64,000 nucleotides of DNA from Escherichia coli (GCF_013315695.1 NZ_CP054353.1), one strand, 5' to 3'; shown: positions 25,396-62,271, numbered from the stretch's first letter. The notes: a model not told the origin generated them from the sequence alone. Numbers and translations: made by a program.

Positions 25396-26681
25396 TTCTG
25401 CTCGCGTTCGATAGCGCGCCAGCCGATATCTTTCCGGCAGAAGCAGTCGTCCCAGTGGATATCGGTCATTAAGGCGTAGGCGCGTTTCTGCGCTTCTGCT
25501 ACGGTATGACCCAGCGCGGTGACGCACAGTACGCGCCCGCCGCTGGTCACTACCTGCTCGTTACCCGCCAGTTTCGTGCCCGCGTGGAACACTTTGCCGT
25601 CAGACACTTCTTCCAGCGGCAGGCCGTGGATCACATCGCCGGTGCGGTAATCGCCCGGATATCCACCCGCAGCCATCACCACGCCGAGAGAAGCGCGTTC
25701 ATCCCACTCGGACGTTTTCTCGTCCAGCTTGCCTTCACAGGCCGCCAGGCAAAGCTCAACCAGATCGGACTTCATGCGCAGCATAATCGGCTGGGTTTCT
25801 GGATCGCCAAAGCGGCAGTTAAATTCAATAACCTTCGGATTGCCCTGTTTGTCGATCATCAGGCCCGCGTAGAGAAAACCAGTGTAGGTGTTGCCTTCTG
25901 CCGCCATGCCTTTCACGGTTGGCCAGATGATTCGTTCCATCGTGCGCTGATGAACCTCATCGGTCACTACTGGCGCAGGGGAGTAAGCGCCCATCCCGCC
26001 GGTGTTCGGCCCGGTATCTTTATCGCCTACGCGTTTGTGATCCTGGCTGGTGGCCATCGGCAGCACATGCTCACCGTCCACCATCACGATAAAGCTCGCT
26101 TCTTCGCCGTCGAGGAACTCTTCGATAACGATGCGATGCCCCGCGTCGCCAAAAGCGTTGCCCGCCAGCATATCGTGAACAGCCGCTTCCGCTTCTTCCT
26201 GCGTCATCGCCACGATAACGCCTTTCCCGGCAGCCAGACCGTCAGCTTTAATGACGATTGGCGCGCCTTTCTCACGCAGATACGCCAGCGCAGGTTCTAC
26301 CTCGGTGAAGTTCTGGTATTCCGCCGTAGGGATCTGATGGCGGGCCAGGAAATCCTTGGTAAACGCTTTCGAGCCTTCCAGCTGCGCGGCACCTGCGGTT
26401 GGGCCGAAGATTTTCATCCCGGCGGCGCGGAAGGTATCGACCACGCCTTTCACCAGCGGCGCTTCCGGGCCGACGATGGTTAGATCGATCTTTTCGTTTT
26501 GCGCGAAATCCAGCAGCGCCGGGATATCGGTTACGCCGATAGCGACGTTTTGCAGTGCAGGCTCCAGCGCAGTGCCTGCGTTACCCGGAGCAACAAAAAC
26601 AGTTTCAACCAGCGGCGACTGGGCCGCTTTCCAGGCCAGCGCGTGCTCGCGCCCGCCGTTACCAATCACTAATACTTTCAT
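25392..26681 (-). CDS. purD: Phosphoribosylamine-glycine ligase
   Basis: 429 aa MKVLVIGNGGREHALAWKAAQSPLVETVFVAPGNAGTA; stop overlaps the zraR stop convergently. Confidence 0.96.
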   Translation of the reverse strand: MKVLVIGNGGREHALAWKAAQSPLVETVFVAPGNAGTALEPALQNVAIGVTDIPALLDFAQNEKIDLTIVGPEAPLVKGVVDTFRAAGMKIFGPTAGAAQLEGSKAFTKDFLARHQIPTAEYQNFTEVEPALAYLREKGAPIVIKADGLAAGKGVIVAMTQEEAEAAVHDMLAGNAFGDAGHRIVIEEFLDGEEASFIVMVDGEHVLPMATSQDHKRVGDKDTGPNTGGMGAYSPAPVVTDEVHQRTMERIIWPTVKGMAAEGNTYTGFLYAGLMIDKQGNPKVIEFNCRFGDPETQPIMLRMKSDLVELCLAACEGKLDEKTSEWDERASLGVVMAAGGYPGDYRTGDVIHGLPLEEVSDGKVFHAGTKLAGNEQVVTSGGRVLCVTALGHTVAEAQKRAYALMTDIHWDDCFCRKDIGWRAIEREQN

Positions 26682-53724: not shown

Positions 53725-54672
53725 TTATTTCAGTAATAGTTCAGCTGTGCTGCTATTCGTTACCAGACAATTAATATATTTTCCACGCAGTGCACCAACA
53801 ATTCCGCTGTATTTTTCTTCACTCATGGCAATGCCAATGGAATATCGTGCCTGCTTTAATTTATTCATTTCGATAGAGAGTGTTTTTTCGCTCATATTCG
53901 TTTCAACCATTGCGCCGTGAATATCAAAAAAGCGCGAGCAAATATCGCCAGCAACCTGGCGGGCATTCAGGTCGTCACTCTCTTCACCACCATAAAACGC
54001 ATGCCAGTTAGCGCCGTCGCGAATGGCCGGTGAGCCAATTCCCACCAGGGCGACATCCAGATTATCCCAGTAGGCAGAGATGGTTTTAAAGTGCTGAGAC
54101 TGCATGATCCCATTACGAATTAATGGGTTATCCAGCAGAGCCGGAAAATCCGCGAGATGCGATTCCCCTTTCAACTTCGCTGCCGCGCTGTAGGTTAATG
54201 TGTTTACATGATAGCGGCTTTCGAGTTTACCGGACGGTCCGCCAATAATTGGTACGCAGATTAACTGCCGCGATTGCCCCGCCTGCGGCAAGTTTTCAAC
54301 CAGTGCGCTCACCGCGCGGCCCCAGGAAAAACCAACAATATCGCCAGGTTCCAGCAAGCGATCCAGCAGTTGCGCGCCGTGTAACCCCATCATCGCCAGT
54401 TGAGTCTCTTCATCCTCATCATTTCCCGACACCACCACAACGTCTTTCAGGCCAAACTTTTGCTTCAGTTGCTGCTCCAGCCAGAGATTTTCGTTGTAGT
54501 CATAGTTGATGGCGATGGTGACAATTCCCTGATCGCGGCCTCGTTTAAGCAAGCGGCTGATGGTGGTGCGGTAAATACCCAGTTCGCGCGCGATTTGCGC
54601 CTGCGTCATATCCTGTTCGTAATAGAGTTGGGCAATCTTCACAATCAAACGGATATCGTCACTGTTTTCCAT
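53725..54672 (-). CDS. sorC: SorC-family transcriptional regulator of the sorbose operon
   Basis: 315 aa from ATG(rc) 54670-54672 (MENSDDIRLIVKIAQLYYEQDMTQAQIARELGIYRTTISRLLKRGRDQGIV), N-terminal HTH plus sugar-phosphate binding domain; first gene of the cluster. Confidence 0.8.
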   Translation of the reverse strand: MENSDDIRLIVKIAQLYYEQDMTQAQIARELGIYRTTISRLLKRGRDQGIVTIAINYDYNENLWLEQQLKQKFGLKDVVVVSGNDEDEETQLAMMGLHGAQLLDRLLEPGDIVGFSWGRAVSALVENLPQAGQSRQLICVPIIGGPSGKLESRYHVNTLTYSAAAKLKGESHLADFPALLDNPLIRNGIMQSQHFKTISAYWDNLDVALVGIGSPAIRDGANWHAFYGGEESDDLNARQVAGDICSRFFDIHGAMVETNMSEKTLSIEMNKLKQARYSIGIAMSEEKYSGIVGALRGKYINCLVTNSSTAELLLK

Positions 54673-55019
54673 TGCCGCCTCCTGGTTCTGCACATTTGTG
54701 CAAATACGCTTTCTCACCGCTTGATCTGATATAACCCCATCATGATGGCCTTTCAAAGCGATTTTTCACTCTTTGCATGGGGGGAAATAGCGCTTTCTCT
54801 TGCACATTTGTTTCTCTGCGTAGTAGTCATCAGCACAGGTGTGCAGCGATTCGTAATATGTTGATTATCCTTATTTTGCCAGGCAAATTTGCATCGTACT
54901 TCCGGAGACACTTTTGTGATAAAAGGCGTGGCAGATCACATTTAATTTCGACGTTGCCGCATAACCCTGTTTTTCCCCGCTAAGAGGTACGGTATATTCC
55001 GCGTTTTACAGGAGAATTT

Positions 55020-55892
55020 ATGCTGCCCGACTCATCAGTCCGTTTAAATAAATACATCAGCGAAAGCGGAATTTGCTCACGCCGCGAAGCGGATCGCTAT
55101 ATCGAGCAAGGCAATGTGTTCCTTAATGGCAAGCGAGCCACCATTGGCGATCAGGTGAAACCCGGCGACGTTGTGAAAGTAAACGGTCAGTTGATTGAGC
55201 CTCGGGAAGCCGAAGATTTGGTACTTATCGCCCTGAACAAGCCCGTCGGTATTGTCAGCACCACCGAAGATGGCGAGCGCGATAACATTGTCGATTTCGT
55301 TAACCACAGCAAACGCGTGTTCCCGATTGGCCGCCTGGATAAAGACTCCCAGGGGCTGATTTTCCTCACCAATCACGGCGATCTGGTGAATAAGATCCTC
55401 CGTGCGGGTAACGATCATGAGAAAGAGTATTTGGTGACGGTTGATAAACCGATTACCGATGAATTTATTCGTGGTATGGGGGCGGGAGTGCCGATCCTCG
55501 GGACGGTGACGAAAAAGTGCAAAGTCAAAAAAGAAGCGCCGTTTGTCTTCCGCATTACCCTGGTGCAGGGGCTGAACCGTCAGATCCGTCGCATGTGCGA
55601 GCACTTTGGTTACGAAGTGAAAAAGCTGGAACGTACGCGCATTATGAACGTCAGTTTAAGCGGCATTCCGCTGGGTGAGTGGCGCGATTTAACCGACGAT
55701 GAGTTAATCGACCTCTTTAAGCTCATCGAAAATTCCTCTTCCGAGGCAAAACCTAAAGCGAAGGCCAAACCGAAAACGGTAGGCATCAAACGTCCAGTCG
55801 TCAAGATGGAAAAAACGGCGGAAAAAGGCGGTCGCCCGGCGTCCAACGGTAAGCGTTTTACCTCGCCGGGGCGAAAAAAGAAGGGACGTTAA
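55020..55892 (+). CDS. rluF: 23S rRNA pseudouridine synthase RluF
   Basis: 290 aa; S4 domain N-terminus and pseudouridine synthase motif [21 protein letters not shown]; Lys-rich tail. Confidence 0.94.
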
Positions 55893-56165
55893 TCAGCGCC
55901 TGCCGCGCGTCGACGTATTTGCTGACCAGCTAAATGACGCCTCAGGATCCGGTTTATAAGCCTGCTTTTTCTTCAATTGGCGGGCTTTTTTCGCTTCAGC
56001 CTCACGCTCGACCATTAATTTATCGATGTACTCTTTCTTAATGCTGTTGGTTTCGGAGTTGGTCAGTACGCGACCATGCGCAATCCGCGCCCGATCCAGC
56101 AATGTTTTAAGTTCACGCTGCTCGCGTTCAGTCATCTCTTTTTGGGTAATACGGGGGAGTGCCAT
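55893..56165 (-). CDS. yjbD: DUF3811 family protein YjbD
   Basis: 90 aa MALPRITQKEMTEREQRELKTLLDRARIAHGRVLTNSETNSIKKEYIDKLMVEREAEAKKARQLKKK. Confidence 0.85.
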   Translation of the reverse strand: MALPRITQKEMTEREQRELKTLLDRARIAHGRVLTNSETNSIKKEYIDKLMVEREAEAKKARQLKKKQAYKPDPEASFSWSANTSTRGRR

Positions 56166-56378
56166 GATGGTGCCCTCAGTGAGCCAGAGAGTTCAGTGTA
56201 CGGGAATTCGTTTGCGAGCAGAACTGATAATATTCCTTTGTTCCCTTCTTAAATATCTATCTTTCTTGATAATTGACGATAAATACAGATAAAAATTTAG
56301 CAAAAAGTTTTCCCCCTACAAACAACAGTAATTCATTAACTCTTTATTTTTCATTTGGTTAATGGTTTTTCTCAATTC

Positions 56379-56394
56379 TGGCACGCTTCTCGCA
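56379..56394 (+). promoter_or_regulatory. Putative sigma54 (-24/-12) promoter upstream of the SPFH gene
   Basis: TGGCACGCTTCTCGCA: matches TGGCACG-N4-TTGCW with one mismatch (C for T at -14); GG and GC separated by 10 nt; about 300 nt upstream of the SPFH start. Confidence 0.45.
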
Positions 56395-56693
56395 ATAACA
56401 CTTTTGCGTTGATACTGAATTTCAAAGGGGATTAAACCCCGTCGGCACACCAGGAACGGCCAGGCTGTTTTCCGGGCGTGTTCCGTCAGCCTTTGACGCT
56501 AATTACGGGTTCGATTCCCGAATTCATTCCTGAAATGAATACTGGTTGTAACTTATTAAATAAAAAATGGGGGATTGCGCAGTCAGCGATCCCCGATAAC
56601 GTCGCCGATAAAGACGCCGGGATACAGGCAAAAGGGAATTCCCCTGTCTCTTCGTGTCTGCTTCCGCGACGGCTGTTAAGCAAGGAATAGATA

Positions 56694-57821
56694 ATGATTA
56701 AGAAAATAAGCGTAAGAAAAGATCAGCTGGCATTACTCTCCAGAAATGGCGATTACTACAAAGTGCTGCATGCAGGCGAGCATCTTTTACCCTGGTTAAA
56801 TACGCCAGAAGTCTTGCTGATTACGCTCGATGGCAGCGAAGTTCCCGACGTGCTGGCGGATTATTTGCGCCGCTTTCAGCCTGATTGGGTGGAAAGATAT
56901 TGCGTGGTGGCCGACTTGTCGGAGACTGAAGCCGGGGCGTTGTATATGGACGGTATTTTGCTGGAGATCCTGCCGCCATCAACGCGTCGTTTGTACTGGC
57001 GTGTAGAGGATGATTTGACGCTGGTGCGGATGAATACGCAGCAAGTCCAGGTTCAAACGGAGGTGATGAATGCGGTATTGCAGCCACGGCGCAAAGGGAC
57101 TGTTAAAGGCCGCGATGCGATACTGACGGTGCAGGTTCCGGCCTGGCACGTAGGTGTACTGAAAATCGATGGTGAAACGCAGGCGCTGTTACCGCCGGGG
57201 CTGACTGCGTACTGGAAAATTAACCATCTGGTTGAAGCTGAAGTGGTTGACACCCGCTTGCAGGTACTGGAAGTCAGTGGGCAAGAAATCTTAACGAAAG
57301 ATAAGGTCAATCTGCGGATTAATCTCGCCGCTAACTAGCGCTACAGCGACGTGTTATTGGCATTTAGTCAGTTAACGAAGCCGATTGATCATTTGTATCG
57401 GGAATTGCAATTTGCACTGCGTGAAGCGGTAGGTACGCGTACGCTGGATGAGTTGCTGGAAGATAAACAAGTCATTGATGACGTTGTCAGCGAACAGGTG
57501 AAATCGCGTATGTTGCCATTTGGTATGGAGATTGCTTCATTAGGGGTGAAAGATATCGTCCTGCCTGGCGATATGAAAAATATCCTTGCGCAGCTGGTTG
57601 AGGCGGAGAAATCCGCGCAGGCCAATGTGATTCGTCGACGTGAAGAAACGGCAGCGACGCGTTCGTTACTCAATACCGCTAAAGTCATGGAAAACAACCC
57701 GGTGGCGTTACGCTTAAAAGAACTGGAAACGCTGGAGAGAGTGGCTGAGCGGATCGATAACATCTCTGTATTTGGTGGTCTGGATCAGGTTCTGCACGGG
57801 TTAGTGAATATCAAAGGATGA
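56694..57821 (+). pseudogene. SPFH/band-7 domain protein, interrupted by in-frame TAG at 57339-57341
   Basis: Track ORFs 56694..57338 and 57351..57821 are in the same frame, separated only by the TAG; the joined product (...TKDKVNLRINLAAN*RYSDVLLAFSQ...LLEDKQVIDDVVSEQVKSRMLPFGMEIASLGVKDIVLPGDMKNILAQLVEAEKSAQANVIRRREE) has a stomatin/prohibitin-type SPFH domain spanning the stop. Confidence 0.7.
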
Positions 57822-57933
57822 GTCAAATGCCATTAAATGGAGTCAGTGCTGCGATGCGCGAACGGGTATCGCAGCAGTTAAAAGAAATAGAACGTCGCTA
57901 TGGCGTGAAAGTGCTGTACGCCTGCGAATCAGG

Positions 57934-57945
57934 CAGCCGCGGCTG
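57934..57945. repeat. IS4 target-site duplication, left copy
   Basis: CAGCCGCGGCTG immediately 5' of the IS4 terminus TAATGCC. Confidence 0.85.
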
Positions 57946-59371
57946 TAATGCCAGTCAGTTAAGCAACTGACTGGCTCTTTTTCGGGGCTGTGGGGTATTT
58001 CCAGGGCCTCTCCTTTACCACTCTCGGGAAGGCCCTTTCCCTTCTTGTCGGTAATTTCACAAGTTGTCCCATACTTGCAAGATCGCGCATCAGCTCCGGT
58101 ATACGTCCCGGTGAAGCGCCCTGCAATGTCATCAGCATTCTCATCACCATTCCGCATGATTCTGAGAAACTCAGTTGATTCGGCCAGTAACCTTTCAGAT
58201 GTTCCGCCATTTTAATCATCTGATATCTCACCAGATTATAAGCCAGTAAGACACCCCACAGCTCTTGCTCCACAAGCTCCGGTTTTTTACTTCTCAGCGT
58301 CAGCCTGCTCAGTTGCATCGTCTGTTTTATCTCCCTGTATCCCAGTTCGATTTCCCAGCGATGACTGTACAGATCCGCCATTTCTCCTCCGGGGAAGCGC
58401 ATGGCGTCCGTCATCGACGTCAGCAGATGGCAGACTTTTCCTTTGCGCGTCACGGTCAGCAGGCGGGCTGTCACTTCATTTCCCAGTCCCGGCCACTTTT
58501 TTCGTGCCTGCGGGCTGGTTTTCAGCTTCACCAGATGATCGCCTTTACCCAGTTTTCTGATCTCTTCATATTGCGCTCCCTTTCTGAGAGGTATCATCCA
58601 GTGGCGGTGTTCTCCCGCCAGGCTCCAGGCATTTAACAGTCCCAGTGAGTAATAACCTTTATCCATTAACGTCAGAGTGTTATCGCCGGTTTGTTCTATA
58701 AGTTGCTCAGCAAGCTCATTTTCGCTGTTCTTCATCGTGCCGAAGGCTGCAGCCGTCAGCAGATGGCTGGTCAGTTCCATCTGGCAGACCATTTTGACCT
58801 GCGGGTAGAGCGCCGGGTTCCCGGCATGTGTCTGGCGGGGGAAGGCTGCATCGTTCTCTGGTGTATCCGGTGTGCGCCAGAACACACCATCGATGGCCAG
58901 CAGGGTCAGGCCGCACCAGTGCGGATGCGGCGTGGCGTTATGCCAGAGCTGCGCTGTTTTCGTGAACACGCGGCGGACAGCCTCACTTCCCAGGCGCTGG
59001 CGGGCCTGAATAACGGCACTGGGGGCAACGAAGGGGCGATTGCCCGGCAGCATGATGTCCAGGCGATTCACAATCTGGTGAAGAGGTTCTTTACGCTCAA
59101 GCGCCATGCCAACAATACACCAGACCATCATTTCGAGGGGAAGACGGCGCTTGCGTAGCGTTACAGTACCTGATTCGGCAAGGCAACGAGAGATGAGTTC
59201 GGGGTCGAGGTAATCCCCCAGAGAAGTCAGTGGGTTACGCAGAGAATCGTAACGGGATACCAGATCAAGAGCCTGTCCAATGTGCATAAAAAAATCCGGA
59301 AACAAGTGAGCGTTTCCGGATTCTTACACAGCCACTGGATCGGTCAACTGATCCTTAACTGATCGGCATTA
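57946..59371 (-). mobile_element. IS4 insertion sequence (complete, 1426 bp)
   Basis: Terminal inverted repeats TAATGCCAGTCAGTTAAG... and ...CTTAACTGATCGGCATTA; single 442 aa DDE transposase; flanked by a 12 bp direct repeat. Confidence 0.92.
57959..59287 (-). CDS. insG: IS4 transposase
   Basis: 442 aa [63 protein letters not shown]... (IS4 family DDE transposase). Confidence 0.92.
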
Positions 59372-59383
59372 CAGCCGCGGCTG
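59372..59383. repeat. IS4 target-site duplication, right copy
   Basis: CAGCCGCGGCTG immediately 3' of the IS4 terminus. Confidence 0.85.
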
Positions 59384-60170
59384 GGGATTTGCCTCGCCCG
59401 ATAGCGACTACGATGTACGGTTTTTGTATGTCCATCCGCTGGAATGGTATCTGCGTGTAGAGTCACCGCGCGATGTTATCGAGCTGCCCATCGACGACGA
59501 ATTAGATGTTTCCGGTTGGGAGTGGCGTAAGGCGCTGGGATTATTGAAAGGCGCGAATCCGACGCTGATAGAATGGCTGGATTCTCCGGTGGTCTATCAA
59601 CAAGATGAAGAAACGATAACGGCGCTTAAGGCAATGGTCCCAATGTGGTTTTCTTCGTTGCGTGCACGCTGGCATTACTATTCGATGGCGCAGAAAAACT
59701 TCCGCGGCTATTTGCAGGGCGATGAAGTTCGACTGAAAAAATACTTTTACGTGCTGCGCCCGCTGCTGGCCGTGCGCTGGGTCGAAGCGGGTAAAGGCGT
59801 GCCGCCAATGCGCTTTGCTGAGTTACTGGCAGGAAGCGAGCTTGATGCGCCGTTACGCGAAGAGATTGACGAACTGCTGGAGCGTAAACAGCGAGCGGGG
59901 GAGGCGGAATATGGTCCGCGCCGTCCTTTGTTACATGCGTTTATTCGCGCGGAGCTGGCGCGTGGGGAAATTCCACCGATTTTACCGGACAGTCGAGATG
60001 GAGATGTTCGGGAGCTAGATAATTTGCTGTATCAAACGGTAATGCGCCGGGCATAAAGCCCGGCGTGATTTATTGCTGGTATTGCCAACTGCTGACTAAA
60101 GCGTACAAGTGATTTGGTGATGCTGCCAACTTACTGATTTAGTGTATGATGGTGTTTTTGAGGTGCTCCA

Positions 60171-60446
60171 GTGGCTTCTGTTTCTATCAGCTGTCCCTCC
60201 TGTTCAGCTACTGACGGGGTGGTGCGTAACGGCAAAAGCACCGCCGGACATCAGCGCTATCTCTGCTCTCACTGCCGTAAAACATGGCAACTGCAGTTCA
60301 CTTACACCGCTTCTCAACCCGGTACGCACCAGAAAATCATTGATATGGCCATGAATGGCGTTGGATGCCGGGCAACAGCCCGCATTATGGGCGTTGGCCT
60401 CAACACGATTTTACGTCACTTAAAAAACTCAGGCCGCAGTCGGTAA
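60171..60446 (+). CDS. insA: IS1 InsA
   Basis: 91 aa [43 protein letters not shown]... zinc-finger/HTH protein of IS1. Confidence 0.93.
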
Positions 60447-60868
60447 CCTCGCGCATACAGCCGGGCAGTGACGTCATCGTCTGCGCGGAAATGGACGAAC
60501 AGTGGGGCTATGTCGGGGCTAAATCGCGCCAGCGCTGGCTGTTTTACGCGTATGACAGGCTCCGGAAGACGGTTGTTGCGCACGTATTCGGTGAACGCAC
60601 TATGGCGACGCTGGGGCGTCTTATGAGCCTGCTGTCACCCTTTGACGTGGTGATATGGATGACGGATGGCTGGCCGCTGTATGAATCCCGCCTGAAGGGA
60701 AAGCTGCACGTAATCAGCAAGCGATATACGCAGCGAATTGAGCGGCATAACCTGAATCTGAGGCAGCACCTGGCACGGCTGGGACGGAAGTCGCTGTCGT
60801 TCTCAAAATCGGTGGAGCTGCATGACAAAGTCATCGGGCATTATCTGAACATAAAACACTATCAATAA
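60365..60868 (+). CDS. insB: IS1 InsB reading frame (expressed as InsAB' by -1 frameshift)
   Basis: -1 frame relative to insA; ...[78 protein letters not shown] slippery run in the insA/insB overlap. Confidence 0.9.
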
Positions 60869-60921
60869 GTTGGAGTCATTACCAATAGCGTCGTGGGTCG
60901 CTATTCACCTCTACTGATCGT

Positions 60922-62271
60922 TTACTCAAACAAATTAAAATGCAGCTTCTGCACCACCTGCTCGGCATCTTCGCCGGGCACCAGGAAGCACAGGTTATGG
61001 CTGGATGCGCCGTAACAAATCATGCGAATGTTGAACGGTTCCAGTACGCCGAATACCTCTTTGCCAACGCCGCAGGCTTTTGACAGGTCATTGCCAATCA
61101 ACGCGACCAGCGCCAGCCCCTCTTCCACTTCCACCCGGCACAGTGCGGAAAGCTCCATCAGCAGGGATTGCGTCAGCAAGGTATCGCCAGTGGAGGTTGA
61201 ACCGGTGGTATCAAGGGTTAATGCCACGCTCACTTCTGACGTGGTGATTAAGTCTACCGAAATATTATGCCGCGCGAGGATGCCGAAAACTTCCGCGAGG
61301 AAACCGCGAGAATGCAGCATATTCAGGCTGTGCAAAGTGAGCAGGGTCTGATTGCGACGAAGCGCCAGCGCGCGGAACAGCGGCGGATTTTCAGTTTTAT
61401 TGCACACCAGCGTACCACCTGCGCGTGGGTCTTTGCTGGAGCCGACAAAGACCGGGATATCGCTGCGTACTGCGGGTAGCAACGTTGCCGGATGCAGTAC
61501 TTTTGCACCAAAAGTTGCCATCTCTGCCGCTTCGGCAAACGCGATTTCATCAATGCGTTTTGCTGCGGAAACCACGCGTGGATCGGTGGTGTAGATGCCC
61601 GGGACGTCGGTCCAGATATCAACACGAGATGCGTGTAAAGCCTCCGCCAGCAAGGCTGCCGTATAATCGCTGCCTCCACGGCCAAGCGTCGTTGTACGAC
61701 CTTTATTTTCGCTACCGATAAATCCCTGGGTGATCACTAAGCCTTCATTGAGGCGTGGGAGCAGCTGCAGCGCGGTCAGTTCCGCCAGCGCGGCTACATC
61801 TGGCTCTGCACGACCAAATCGGTCGTTGGTACGCATCACTTTACGTACATCAAACCACTGTGCCTGAACATCGCGTTCGCGCAGGATTTCGACAAACAGC
61901 AGGGTCGACATCAGCTCGCCGTGGCTGACCAGTTCATCTGTCAGGGCCGGAGACGTTGCCAGCGCCGCCGCTTCTGCCAGAACAGTAATATTCTCCAGCA
62001 GACGTTCAATCTCTTCACGGATAACGTTCGGGTAACGCAGACGTTCCAGAATGGCAAACTGGATATTGCGGATTGCGTCGAGTTTTTCGAATCGCTCGCC
62101 AGGTTCCAGTCCTTCAGCTAAAGCGACCAGCAGATTAGTGATACCAGCAGAAGCCGAGAGGACAACTAAACGCACGTTGGCATCAGAAAGCACAATATCA
62201 GCGCTGCGGTTCATGGCGTCAAAATCAGCTACGCTGGTACCGCCAAATTTGGAGACAACAATTTCAGACAT
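60922..62271 (-). CDS. lysC: Lysine-sensitive aspartokinase III
   Basis: 449 aa MSEIVVSKFGGTSVADFDAMNRSADIVLSDANVRLVVLSASAGITNLLVALAEG...; C-terminal ACT domains. Confidence 0.96.
   Translation of the reverse strand: MSEIVVSKFGGTSVADFDAMNRSADIVLSDANVRLVVLSASAGITNLLVALAEGLEPGERFEKLDAIRNIQFAILERLRYPNVIREEIERLLENITVLAEAAALATSPALTDELVSHGELMSTLLFVEILRERDVQAQWFDVRKVMRTNDRFGRAEPDVAALAELTALQLLPRLNEGLVITQGFIGSENKGRTTTLGRGGSDYTAALLAEALHASRVDIWTDVPGIYTTDPRVVSAAKRIDEIAFAEAAEMATFGAKVLHPATLLPAVRSDIPVFVGSSKDPRAGGTLVCNKTENPPLFRALALRRNQTLLTLHSLNMLHSRGFLAEVFGILARHNISVDLITTSEVSVALTLDTTGSTSTGDTLLTQSLLMELSALCRVEVEEGLALVALIGNDLSKACGVGKEVFGVLEPFNIRMICYGASSHNLCFLVPGEDAEQVVQKLHFNLFE

Follow-up and report, generated by a model that had tools for sequence, protein, structure and literature searches.

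We analysed a 64,000-nt stretch of Escherichia coli DNA (hereafter the window; all coordinates are positions in the whole stretch) and describe here a 4.7-kb islet that separates yjbD from lysC. Read from yjbD, the islet comprises a block of repeats, a sigma-54 promoter, a structured leader, a slipin/Band-7 (SPFH) gene, a nucleotidyltransferase gene of the RlaP family split by the insertion sequence IS4, and finally IS1, beyond which lies lysC (Table 1). The slipin and rlaP genes belong to a single operon under sigma-54 control: they are co-oriented, separated by a gap of 5 nt, and share the promoter and structured leader upstream. In K-12, yjbD and lysC stand 252 bp apart. An earlier annotation made from the sequence of the window alone (the original prediction) had listed a sigma-54-like promoter, a structured leader, the SPFH and nucleotidyltransferase genes and IS1 between yjbD and lysC, had taken the two flanking genes as neighbours in K-12 and had read the pair as one operon; all of these elements are located in the window, and both readings hold.

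Neither protein of the window can be made, which leaves the promoter and the leader RNA as the sole intact parts of the locus. The slipin gene contains a single in-frame stop codon, a TAG that reads TGG in intact strains, along with six other substitutions. The rlaP gene is interrupted between its GS and DxD motifs by IS4, which is flanked by a 12-bp target duplication (CAGCCGCGGCTG, at 57934-57945 and 59372-59383). Removal of IS4 and one repeat copy yields an uninterrupted 263-aa protein that agrees with the intact E. coli 789 protein at 254 of 263 positions and in which the Pol-beta GS...DxD motif ESGSRGWGFASPDSDYD is rejoined. PGAP marks the same slipin and rlaP lesions in E. coli AF3, whose genome is identical. 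The independent inactivation of both genes had been anticipated, as had the nucleotidyltransferase gene and its interruption between the two catalytic motifs; the length first given for the protein, 267 aa, is corrected to 263 aa. Several features described below were absent from that account, namely the T-arm in the leader, the activator-site repeats, the absence of a zeta-toxin gene and the lack of a target duplication around IS1.

Table 1. Features of the yjbD-lysC interval, with positions in the window
Feature	Position	Strand	Remarks
yjbD	55893-56165	-	left flank
Putative RtcR enhancer (upstream activating sequence, UAS)	56257-56293	+	cTATC-N6-GATAA-N4-CGATA-N6-GATAAA; ~90 bp 5' of the sigma-54 promoter
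Sigma-54 (-24/-12) promoter	56379-56394	+	TGGCACGCTTCTCGCA (= TGGCACGcttcTCGCA); TGGCACG-N4-TNGCA pattern
Leader 5' module	56412-56488	+	hairpin P1 (56427-56440), then long helix P2 with conserved 2-nt bulge (CGGCAC...GUG-UU-CCG); covariance model R1, compensatory changes
tRNA-like element	56506-56547	+	T-arm, acceptor-like hairpin, D-loop-like GG
T-arm	56506-56520	+	CGGG-UUCGAUU-CCCG; within tRNA-like element
Acceptor-like hairpin	56522-56540	+	UUCAUUC/GAAUGAA; within tRNA-like element; predicted fold
CUGGUU with D-loop-like GG	56542-56547	+	within tRNA-like element
Leader 3' part	56570-56670	+	9-bp hairpin (56570-56594) and long interrupted hairpin (56601-56670); ends ~20 nt before slipin start codon
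Slipin/Band-7 (SPFH) pseudogene	56694-57821	+	375 codons; W215*, TAG at 57336-57338
RlaP pseudogene, 5' part	57827-57945	+	codons 1-39, GS motif; starts 5 nt after slipin stop
IS4	57946-59371	-	1426 bp; transposase open reading frame 57959-59305; between GS and DxD motifs
RlaP pseudogene, 3' part	59372-60056	+	second duplication copy (59372-59383) and codons 40-263 with DxD; stop 60054-60056
Intrinsic terminator-like hairpin	60043-60067	+	operon end; conserved in strain 789
IS1	60116-60883	+	768 bp; at the place of a convergent zeta-toxin gene in most intact islets
lysC	60922-62271	-	right flank

The intact allele of the second gene encodes a full-length RlaP (Pfam PF10127, E 8.9e-95, residues 10-256 against positions 1-248 of the 249 in the model). 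NCBIfam gave no match for RlaP, and a PDB sequence search returned no solved relative, the PfRlaP structure not being matched in the copy searched. The RlaP proteins of P. fluorescens and P. aeruginosa add one or two nucleoside monophosphates to the 3'-OH of damaged RNA in vitro, and RlaP can restore function to tRNAs missing a nucleotide, prior to ligation (PMC12776372). At the window locus we find no rtcB, the RNA ligase gene; rtcBA is located elsewhere in E. coli.

The relatives of the slipin gene place this pair in context. An earlier search for slipin homologues had returned near-identical E. coli proteins only; a search of 1.8 billion representative proteins was used instead and gave 542 clusters at E<=1e-30. 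From these we aligned 42 full-length homologues (alignment A1) and collected 80 reference-genome loci, onto which E. coli RtcR, RtcB, RtcA and RlaP were mapped. Of the 80, 60 have a divergent rtcR 450-800 bp 5' of the slipin gene. The ligase gene rtcB is found on the same strand in 61, in 59 of them 3' of the slipin gene, and is directly adjacent in L004-L006, L008, L011, L013 and others; RlaP is encoded in 31, and rtcA often comes after it. The loci so linked belong to Enterobacterales, Pseudomonas, Burkholderiales, Rhodocyclales and Neisseriales. The typical order is a divergent rtcR, then sigma-54 promoter, leader, slipin, rtcB, rlaP and optionally rtcA. In Superficieibacter, Mangrovibacter, Hafnia and Pseudocitrobacter, the locus reads divergent rtcR and slipin-rlaP without rtcB, which is the E. 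coli pair plus its activator. The linkage to rtcB and rtcR that the original prediction had named as a check is therefore found, both genes standing beside slipin homologues in ~60 of the 80 loci. Taken together with the promoter and leader described below, these arrangements make it very probable that the islet is the decayed remnant of an RNA-repair operon controlled by RtcR and sigma-54, whose parts are a Band-7 protein, a tRNA-like RNA and RlaP.

The slipin protein contains an SPFH/Band-7 domain (E 1.4e-23), after which comes a C-terminal coiled-coil helix; its residues 142-350 are homologous to stomatin (profile against PDB, E 4e-33), and its N-terminus is made of beta repeats. No transmembrane or hydrophobic segment was detected, the maximum Kyte-Doolittle value over 19 residues being 1.13, and no NfeD partner is present beside the gene in E. 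coli or in the related loci, where the neighbours are RlaP, RtcB and RtcR. Since the protein lacks a hydrophobic segment and its gene lacks an NfeD neighbour, we regard it as a soluble SPFH protein rather than a canonical membrane slipin. The same features, together with the beta-repeat N-terminus and an rtcR/rtcB linkage that is conserved across orders, make it extremely improbable that we are dealing with an ordinary membrane-microdomain or protease-regulating SPFH protein of the QmcA or HflKC type beside which the nucleotidyltransferase gene lies by accident. Such a reading would draw on the NCBI name "slipin family protein", on the best structural matches, which are membrane SPFH cages, and on NCBIfam matches to HflK/HflC; these last are weak, however, and fall far below the curated cut-offs. 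We also note that the slipins of Providencia, Gilliamella, Snodgrassella and Xenorhabdus (L020, L034-L037, L040, L042, L047) are ~520 aa long and contain an extra N-terminal repeat, with 24-43% identity to the N-terminal half of the query.

The promoter connects the islet to the same regulatory system. Its TGGCACG-N4-TNGCA pattern is matched once in the 64 kb, at the islet promoter itself, against 0.10 matches expected, and the motif CTGGCACG-N4-T(C/G)GCAAT stands 310-690 nt 5' of the slipin start in ~55 of the 80 related loci. The islet promoter is also closely similar to that of K-12 rtcBA, CTGGCACGacggTTGCAAT. Upstream of it lies a repeat block whose counterpart in enteric orthologous loci, TTATCC-N5-GATAAA-N3-CGATA-N6-GATAAA, abuts the start codon of rtcR. 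In the window there is no divergent rtcR, and yjbD directly abuts the repeats; in K-12, the yjbD-lysC spacer (L084:1633-1884) holds a degenerate copy, TTATCTCTTTCGATAATTAATTAGAGATGCAGATAAAAA, which likewise adjoins yjbD. From this position we infer that the window repeats are a putative RtcR site. A C-terminal helix-turn-helix segment of RtcR, NDADRLRKYLARFGL, is identical in K-12 RtcR and in a slipin-linked RtcR, the two proteins being 62% identical overall. A single RtcR site shared by K-12 rtcBA and the islet was considered and is not claimed, the spacing of the repeats being different.

The ~290-300 nt between the sigma-54 promoter and the slipin start encode a conserved multi-helix RNA that is structured beyond chance. 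Thirteen enterobacterial leaders were aligned from promoter to start codon (alignment A2), and RNAalifold placed 46 base pairs in six helices, with compensatory changes in 30 of the 46. On this consensus structure 93.4% of cells are paired, and sliding the partners by 1-3 columns lowers this to 42-50%; the covariation score, 0.46, is at most 0.17 after sliding, and none of 500 shuffles reaches the observed values. A covariance model of the 5' module (R1), built from 27 non-E. coli loci (alignment A4), recovers the module in the window with 46.9 bits (E 3.9e-7) and matches 52 related loci, in every case 5' of the slipin gene and on its strand. The module can be seen by eye in Pseudomonas and Betaproteobacteria; R1 gave no match in the K-12 rtcBA locus (L003) or in the K-12 yjbD-lysC locus. 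The sole other R1 match in the window, at 26254-26326 (+) with 13.8 bits and E 0.53, most likely arises by chance. Weak matches (E 0.002-0.005) were seen in two Nostoc loci, L080:6615-6683 and L082:6481-6549, ~1.4 kb 5' of a slipin gene that has no rtcR or rtcB nearby.

Downstream of the 5' module, the leader contains a tRNA-like element. In its T-arm, GGGTTCGAxTCC is invariant in all 13 enteric leaders and the stem covaries (CG in the window, UA in strain 789); the window has a tRNA-like T-arm with a GGUUCGAAUCC-type loop immediately 5' of a Band-7 gene. A closed acceptor-like hairpin and CUGGUU come next, 3' of the T-arm, in the window, Phytobacter, Pluralibacter and Pseudocitrobacter. This hairpin folds and covaries in five short-form sequences (AUU/AAU in the window versus ACU/AGU in Phytobacter), and the D-like part consists of CUGGUU with a weak 3-bp stem. 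The apparent order in the window, T-arm, acceptor-like stem-loop and putative D-like part, would be the one described for the YrlA Y RNAs (PMC4201824). A different pairing is seen in Enterobacter, Kosakonia, Superficieibacter, Siccibacter, Mangrovibacter, Hafnia and Proteus, where the acceptor-like helix draws on a strand 5' of the T-arm (GCGAA/UUCGC, GCAAA/UUUGC, GAUG/CAUC, GGUG/CACC). The two topologies, with the upstream strand in L005-L010 and L012 and with the closed hairpin in the window, L001, L004, L061 and L063, both lie ~180-250 nt 5' of the slipin ATG, and in both a GGUU motif stands 3' of the 5' acceptor strand. Judged from the alignments, the difference looks like a circular rearrangement tied to a ~16-nt deletion. 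A scan of 55800-61000 against Rfam 15 (cmscan, E<=1) gave no match in the leader, and ARAGORN called no tRNA in the window, where a complete cloverleaf is accordingly lacking. At non-enteric loci, in contrast, one or two tRNA-like genes of cloverleaf form, with unusual anticodons, lie 3' of the 5' module (ARAGORN; Rfam tRNA scores up to 63.7 bits).

The 3' part of the leader bears on whether this RNA acts in cis or in trans. Its two hairpins have fold z-scores of -5.7 and -3.2, and helices 5 and 6 of the leader alignment show double changes in 16 of 23 pairs. Only ~20 nt separate the end of the last long hairpin from the start codon, and a terminator scan found no terminator-like site between the leader and the slipin gene. 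Both observations would suit a purely cis-acting 5' untranslated region which, by sensing a protein or a damaged or uncharged tRNA, would control the translation or stability of slipin-rlaP, as opposed to a Y-RNA-like partner acting in trans. In the form found in the window, moreover, a loop closes the acceptor-like helix, which makes RNase P-type excision unlikely. Excision would be expected, on the other hand, for the cloverleaf tRNA-like genes that non-enteric relatives hold in the same place, and the Y RNAs of the analogous rsr-yrlBA-rtcBA operon are processed from the operon transcript (10.1101/312249; PMC4201824). We consider an exclusively cis-acting leader possible but doubtful, and note that cis and trans roles are not mutually exclusive.

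The distribution of the operon speaks to its history. Of 5426 complete E. coli genomes, 1627 (30%) contain leader and slipin gene at >=80% coverage, most of them with both genes annotated as intact; only five of the 5426 match the window at >=99%. The activator gene rtcR is present in 5424 of the 5426. Outside E. coli, Pseudocitrobacter, Enterobacter sp. BIGb0383, Siccibacter, Pluralibacter and Phytobacter have the operon, together with rtcR, between yjbD and lysC; Kosakonia shows rluF and yjbD on the rtcR side, and its stored locus stops at rlaP, leaving the lysC side outside view. Because the operon occupies the same site in five genera and K-12 retains degenerate repeats there, K-12 represents a deleted state and not the ground state. 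The islet had first been seen as an insertion into a K-12-like arrangement; the syntenic operons with rtcR and the repeat scar in K-12 overturn that view. As reconstructed from this synteny, E. coli appears to have inherited the locus and lost rtcR and rtcB from it, and ~70% of its genomes, including K-12, to have later deleted the rest. The window lineage has instead inactivated the slipin gene (by W215*) and rlaP (by IS4).

Two observations on neighbouring genes may be added here. In Pseudocitrobacter, the gap between yjbD and rtcR (L063:4185-5923) contains a 190-aa open reading frame and a gene for a 337-aa polytopic membrane protein, neither of which is found at the E. coli site. In the window itself, outside the islet, a SorC-family regulator and a sorbose-type phosphotransferase system/short-chain dehydrogenase operon (53725-54756 and upstream) lie between pepE and rluF, two genes that adjoin each other in K-12.

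At the 3' end of the operon, most intact E. coli islets have a convergent gene for a 308-aa zeta-toxin (EzeT-like) between rlaP and lysC (L001:6490-7416, - strand). The PezT-like kinase part of the protein starts at residue 84, and its architecture is that reported for EzeT, with a cis antitoxin (residues 1-82) followed by the toxin. This gene is present in 1434 of the 5426 E. coli genomes and is absent from Pseudocitrobacter and from the corresponding place in the window (60072-60921), which is occupied by IS1. The element lacks a 9-bp target duplication, with AAGTGATTT on its left and AATAGCGTC on its right, and the 45 nt to its left (60072-60115) find no match in strain 789. These borders suggest an IS1-associated deletion or recombination, by which the zeta-toxin gene may have been lost. 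The possibility that 60072-60115 is the 3' end of a zeta-toxin allele was considered and rejected, as the alignment gives no support.

The toxin gene beside intact islets invites comparison with conflict systems, and the original prediction had in fact proposed a defence or RNA-damage response module that decayed because it was toxic or costly. In its strict form, this would be a stand-alone two-gene anti-phage, abortive-infection or toxic module in which the SPFH protein serves as sensor or scaffold and the nucleotidyltransferase as effector. The patchy occurrence in 30% of E. coli genomes would fit such a module, and RNA-repair systems are known to counter ribotoxin conflicts. However, neither protein finds a model in PADLOC-DB 2.0 (0 defence families each for slipin and RlaP), the conserved partners are RtcR, RtcB and RtcA rather than effectors, the locus is not mobile but an ancestral, syntenic part of the chromosome, and homologues of RlaP have been seen in vitro to extend the ends of damaged RNA. 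Strong toxicity is further opposed by the 1627 carriers, most of them with both genes annotated as intact. We therefore judge a defence or toxic module quite improbable. Of the two functions first proposed, the RNA-damage response is borne out by the linkage to rtcR and rtcB, and the defence role is not; nor is there any sign of toxicity behind the decay, which the loss of the cognate rtcR and rtcB together with insertion-sequence activity explains equally well.

Within an RNA-repair operon of this kind, the parts could work together as follows. The ancestral enterobacterial yjbD-lysC site would have held a divergent rtcR facing the UAS, the sigma-54 promoter and a ~300-nt leader, followed by slipin, rtcB and rlaP. 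RtcR is a sigma-54 activator whose CARF domain binds 5' tRNA halves ending in a 2',3'-cyclic phosphate, upon which the protein oligomerises (PMC7790460). With its identical DNA-binding helix, the core RtcR of E. coli might also fire the islet promoter via the repeats that have been kept. The transcript would start with a multi-helix RNA bearing, as the covariation indicates, a mimic of the tRNA elbow. The soluble stomatin-like protein may form a ring or cage with the leader RNA as its partner or scaffold, as Ro60 does with Y RNA. RlaP would then extend damaged 3'-OH ends, and the trimmed tRNAs could be resealed by RtcB supplied in trans from rtcBA.

Several points weigh against this scheme. 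The roles given to slipin and leader RNA are predictions, and with no rtcR or rtcB at the E. coli locus, both regulation and ligation would have to be provided in trans. The repeats upstream of K-12 rtcBA contain related words at another spacing, as compared by eye, which makes cross-activation uncertain. RlaP products end in 3'-OH and are not directly joinable by RtcB (PMC12776372), and deletion of PaFlo8, the P. aeruginosa slipin homologue, gave no phenotype in the assays used. A bolder version of the RNA-repair reading, which we put forward tentatively and hold to be rather unlikely, takes the leader as an undescribed, Rfam-absent multi-domain RNA, made up of the bulged-helix 5' module (seen in 52 loci across Proteobacteria), a circularly rearranged mimic of the tRNA elbow and two 3' hairpins, that is a subunit of a soluble vault-like SPFH cage ribonucleoprotein presenting broken tRNAs to RlaP and RtcB; the orphaned E. 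coli module would then answer in trans to the core RtcR regulon, as a second, strain-variable arm of the Rtc response in 30% of strains.

In sum, the locus is defunct in this window and does not add a new kind of system. It does correct the evolutionary reading of the site, K-12 being the deleted state, and it points to the ~30% of complete E. coli genomes in which an intact slipin-rlaP pair with promoter and leader exists apart from its activator and ligase. Since this orphan module occurs in a species where core rtcR is near-universal, trans-regulation and the association of slipin with RNA are open to simple genetic testing in E. coli, the best-understood bacterium. The role of a Band-7 protein and a tRNA-like RNA in bacterial RNA repair is a prediction for which E. 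coli offers a tractable entry point.

The closest known counterparts are the Band-7/b7a-tRNA/RtcB RNA-repair systems, which were described computationally by Burroughs & Aravind 2016, as cited in bioRxiv 10.1101/312249. As in these systems, a Band-7 gene stands directly 3' of a tRNA-like RNA, orthologous loci are linked to RtcB, RlaP and RtcR, and the slipins belong to the same clade (45-82% identity across the loci). Unlike them, E. coli lacks both rtcB and rtcR at this place, and the tRNA-like element of its copy is reduced to a T-arm and a closed acceptor-like hairpin that tRNA finders do not call. The original prediction did not recognise the pairing as a named system; the combination of Band-7, tRNA-like RNA and RlaP in RtcR-controlled RtcB operons had been described in 2016.

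In P. aeruginosa, the rtc locus has the order rtcR - PA14_60630 (PaFlo8, SPFH) - rtcB - rlaP - rtcA (PMC13086221; PMC12776372). Gene families and order agree with those of the islet and its orthologues, identities to Pseudomonas proteins being 56-57% for slipin and 56-61% for RlaP, and Pseudomonas loci have the same sigma-54 promoter and leader 5' module. The Pseudomonas operon is complete, however, with ligase, cyclase and activator as well as cloverleaf tRNA-like genes, whereas the window copy is truncated and pseudogenised.

The Salmonella rsr-yrlBA-rtcBA operon resembles the islet in its RtcR/sigma-54 drive (presumed in the islet), in an operon-embedded structured RNA with a tRNA-like domain, whose T-arm, acceptor-like and D-like order the islet RNA may share, and in a ring- or cage-forming protein as the presumed partner of that RNA. 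It differs in that the protein is Ro60 (TROVE) there and SPFH/stomatin-like here, and in that the RNA lies 3' of the protein gene in Salmonella and 5' in the islet. No Rsr/Ro60 gene is annotated in the E. coli loci, though no search aimed at Rsr/Ro60 was made, and the GNCGAA motif by which Ro is bound was not seen, no examination for it having been made. K-12 rtcR-rtcBA shares a nearly identical sigma-54 promoter (CTGGCACG-N4-TTGCAAT vs CTGGCACG-N4-TCGCAAT) and an RtcR recognition helix identical to that of slipin-linked RtcRs; unlike the islet, it has no leader RNA (R1 negative), slipin or RlaP, and its upstream repeats are spaced otherwise. The eukaryotic vault, made of major vault protein and vault RNA, resembles the slipin system at the level of fold only, stomatin and HflK scoring higher. 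The analogy between vaults and the Band-7 system is said to have been drawn already by Burroughs and Aravind in 2016.

From these comparisons, the locus is a truncated, pseudogenised member of a system for which a computational definition and a partial biochemical characterisation already exist, and not a new kind. What may be new is the E. coli form without ligase and activator, its rearranged tRNA-like element, and the conserved leader modules that are not tRNA.

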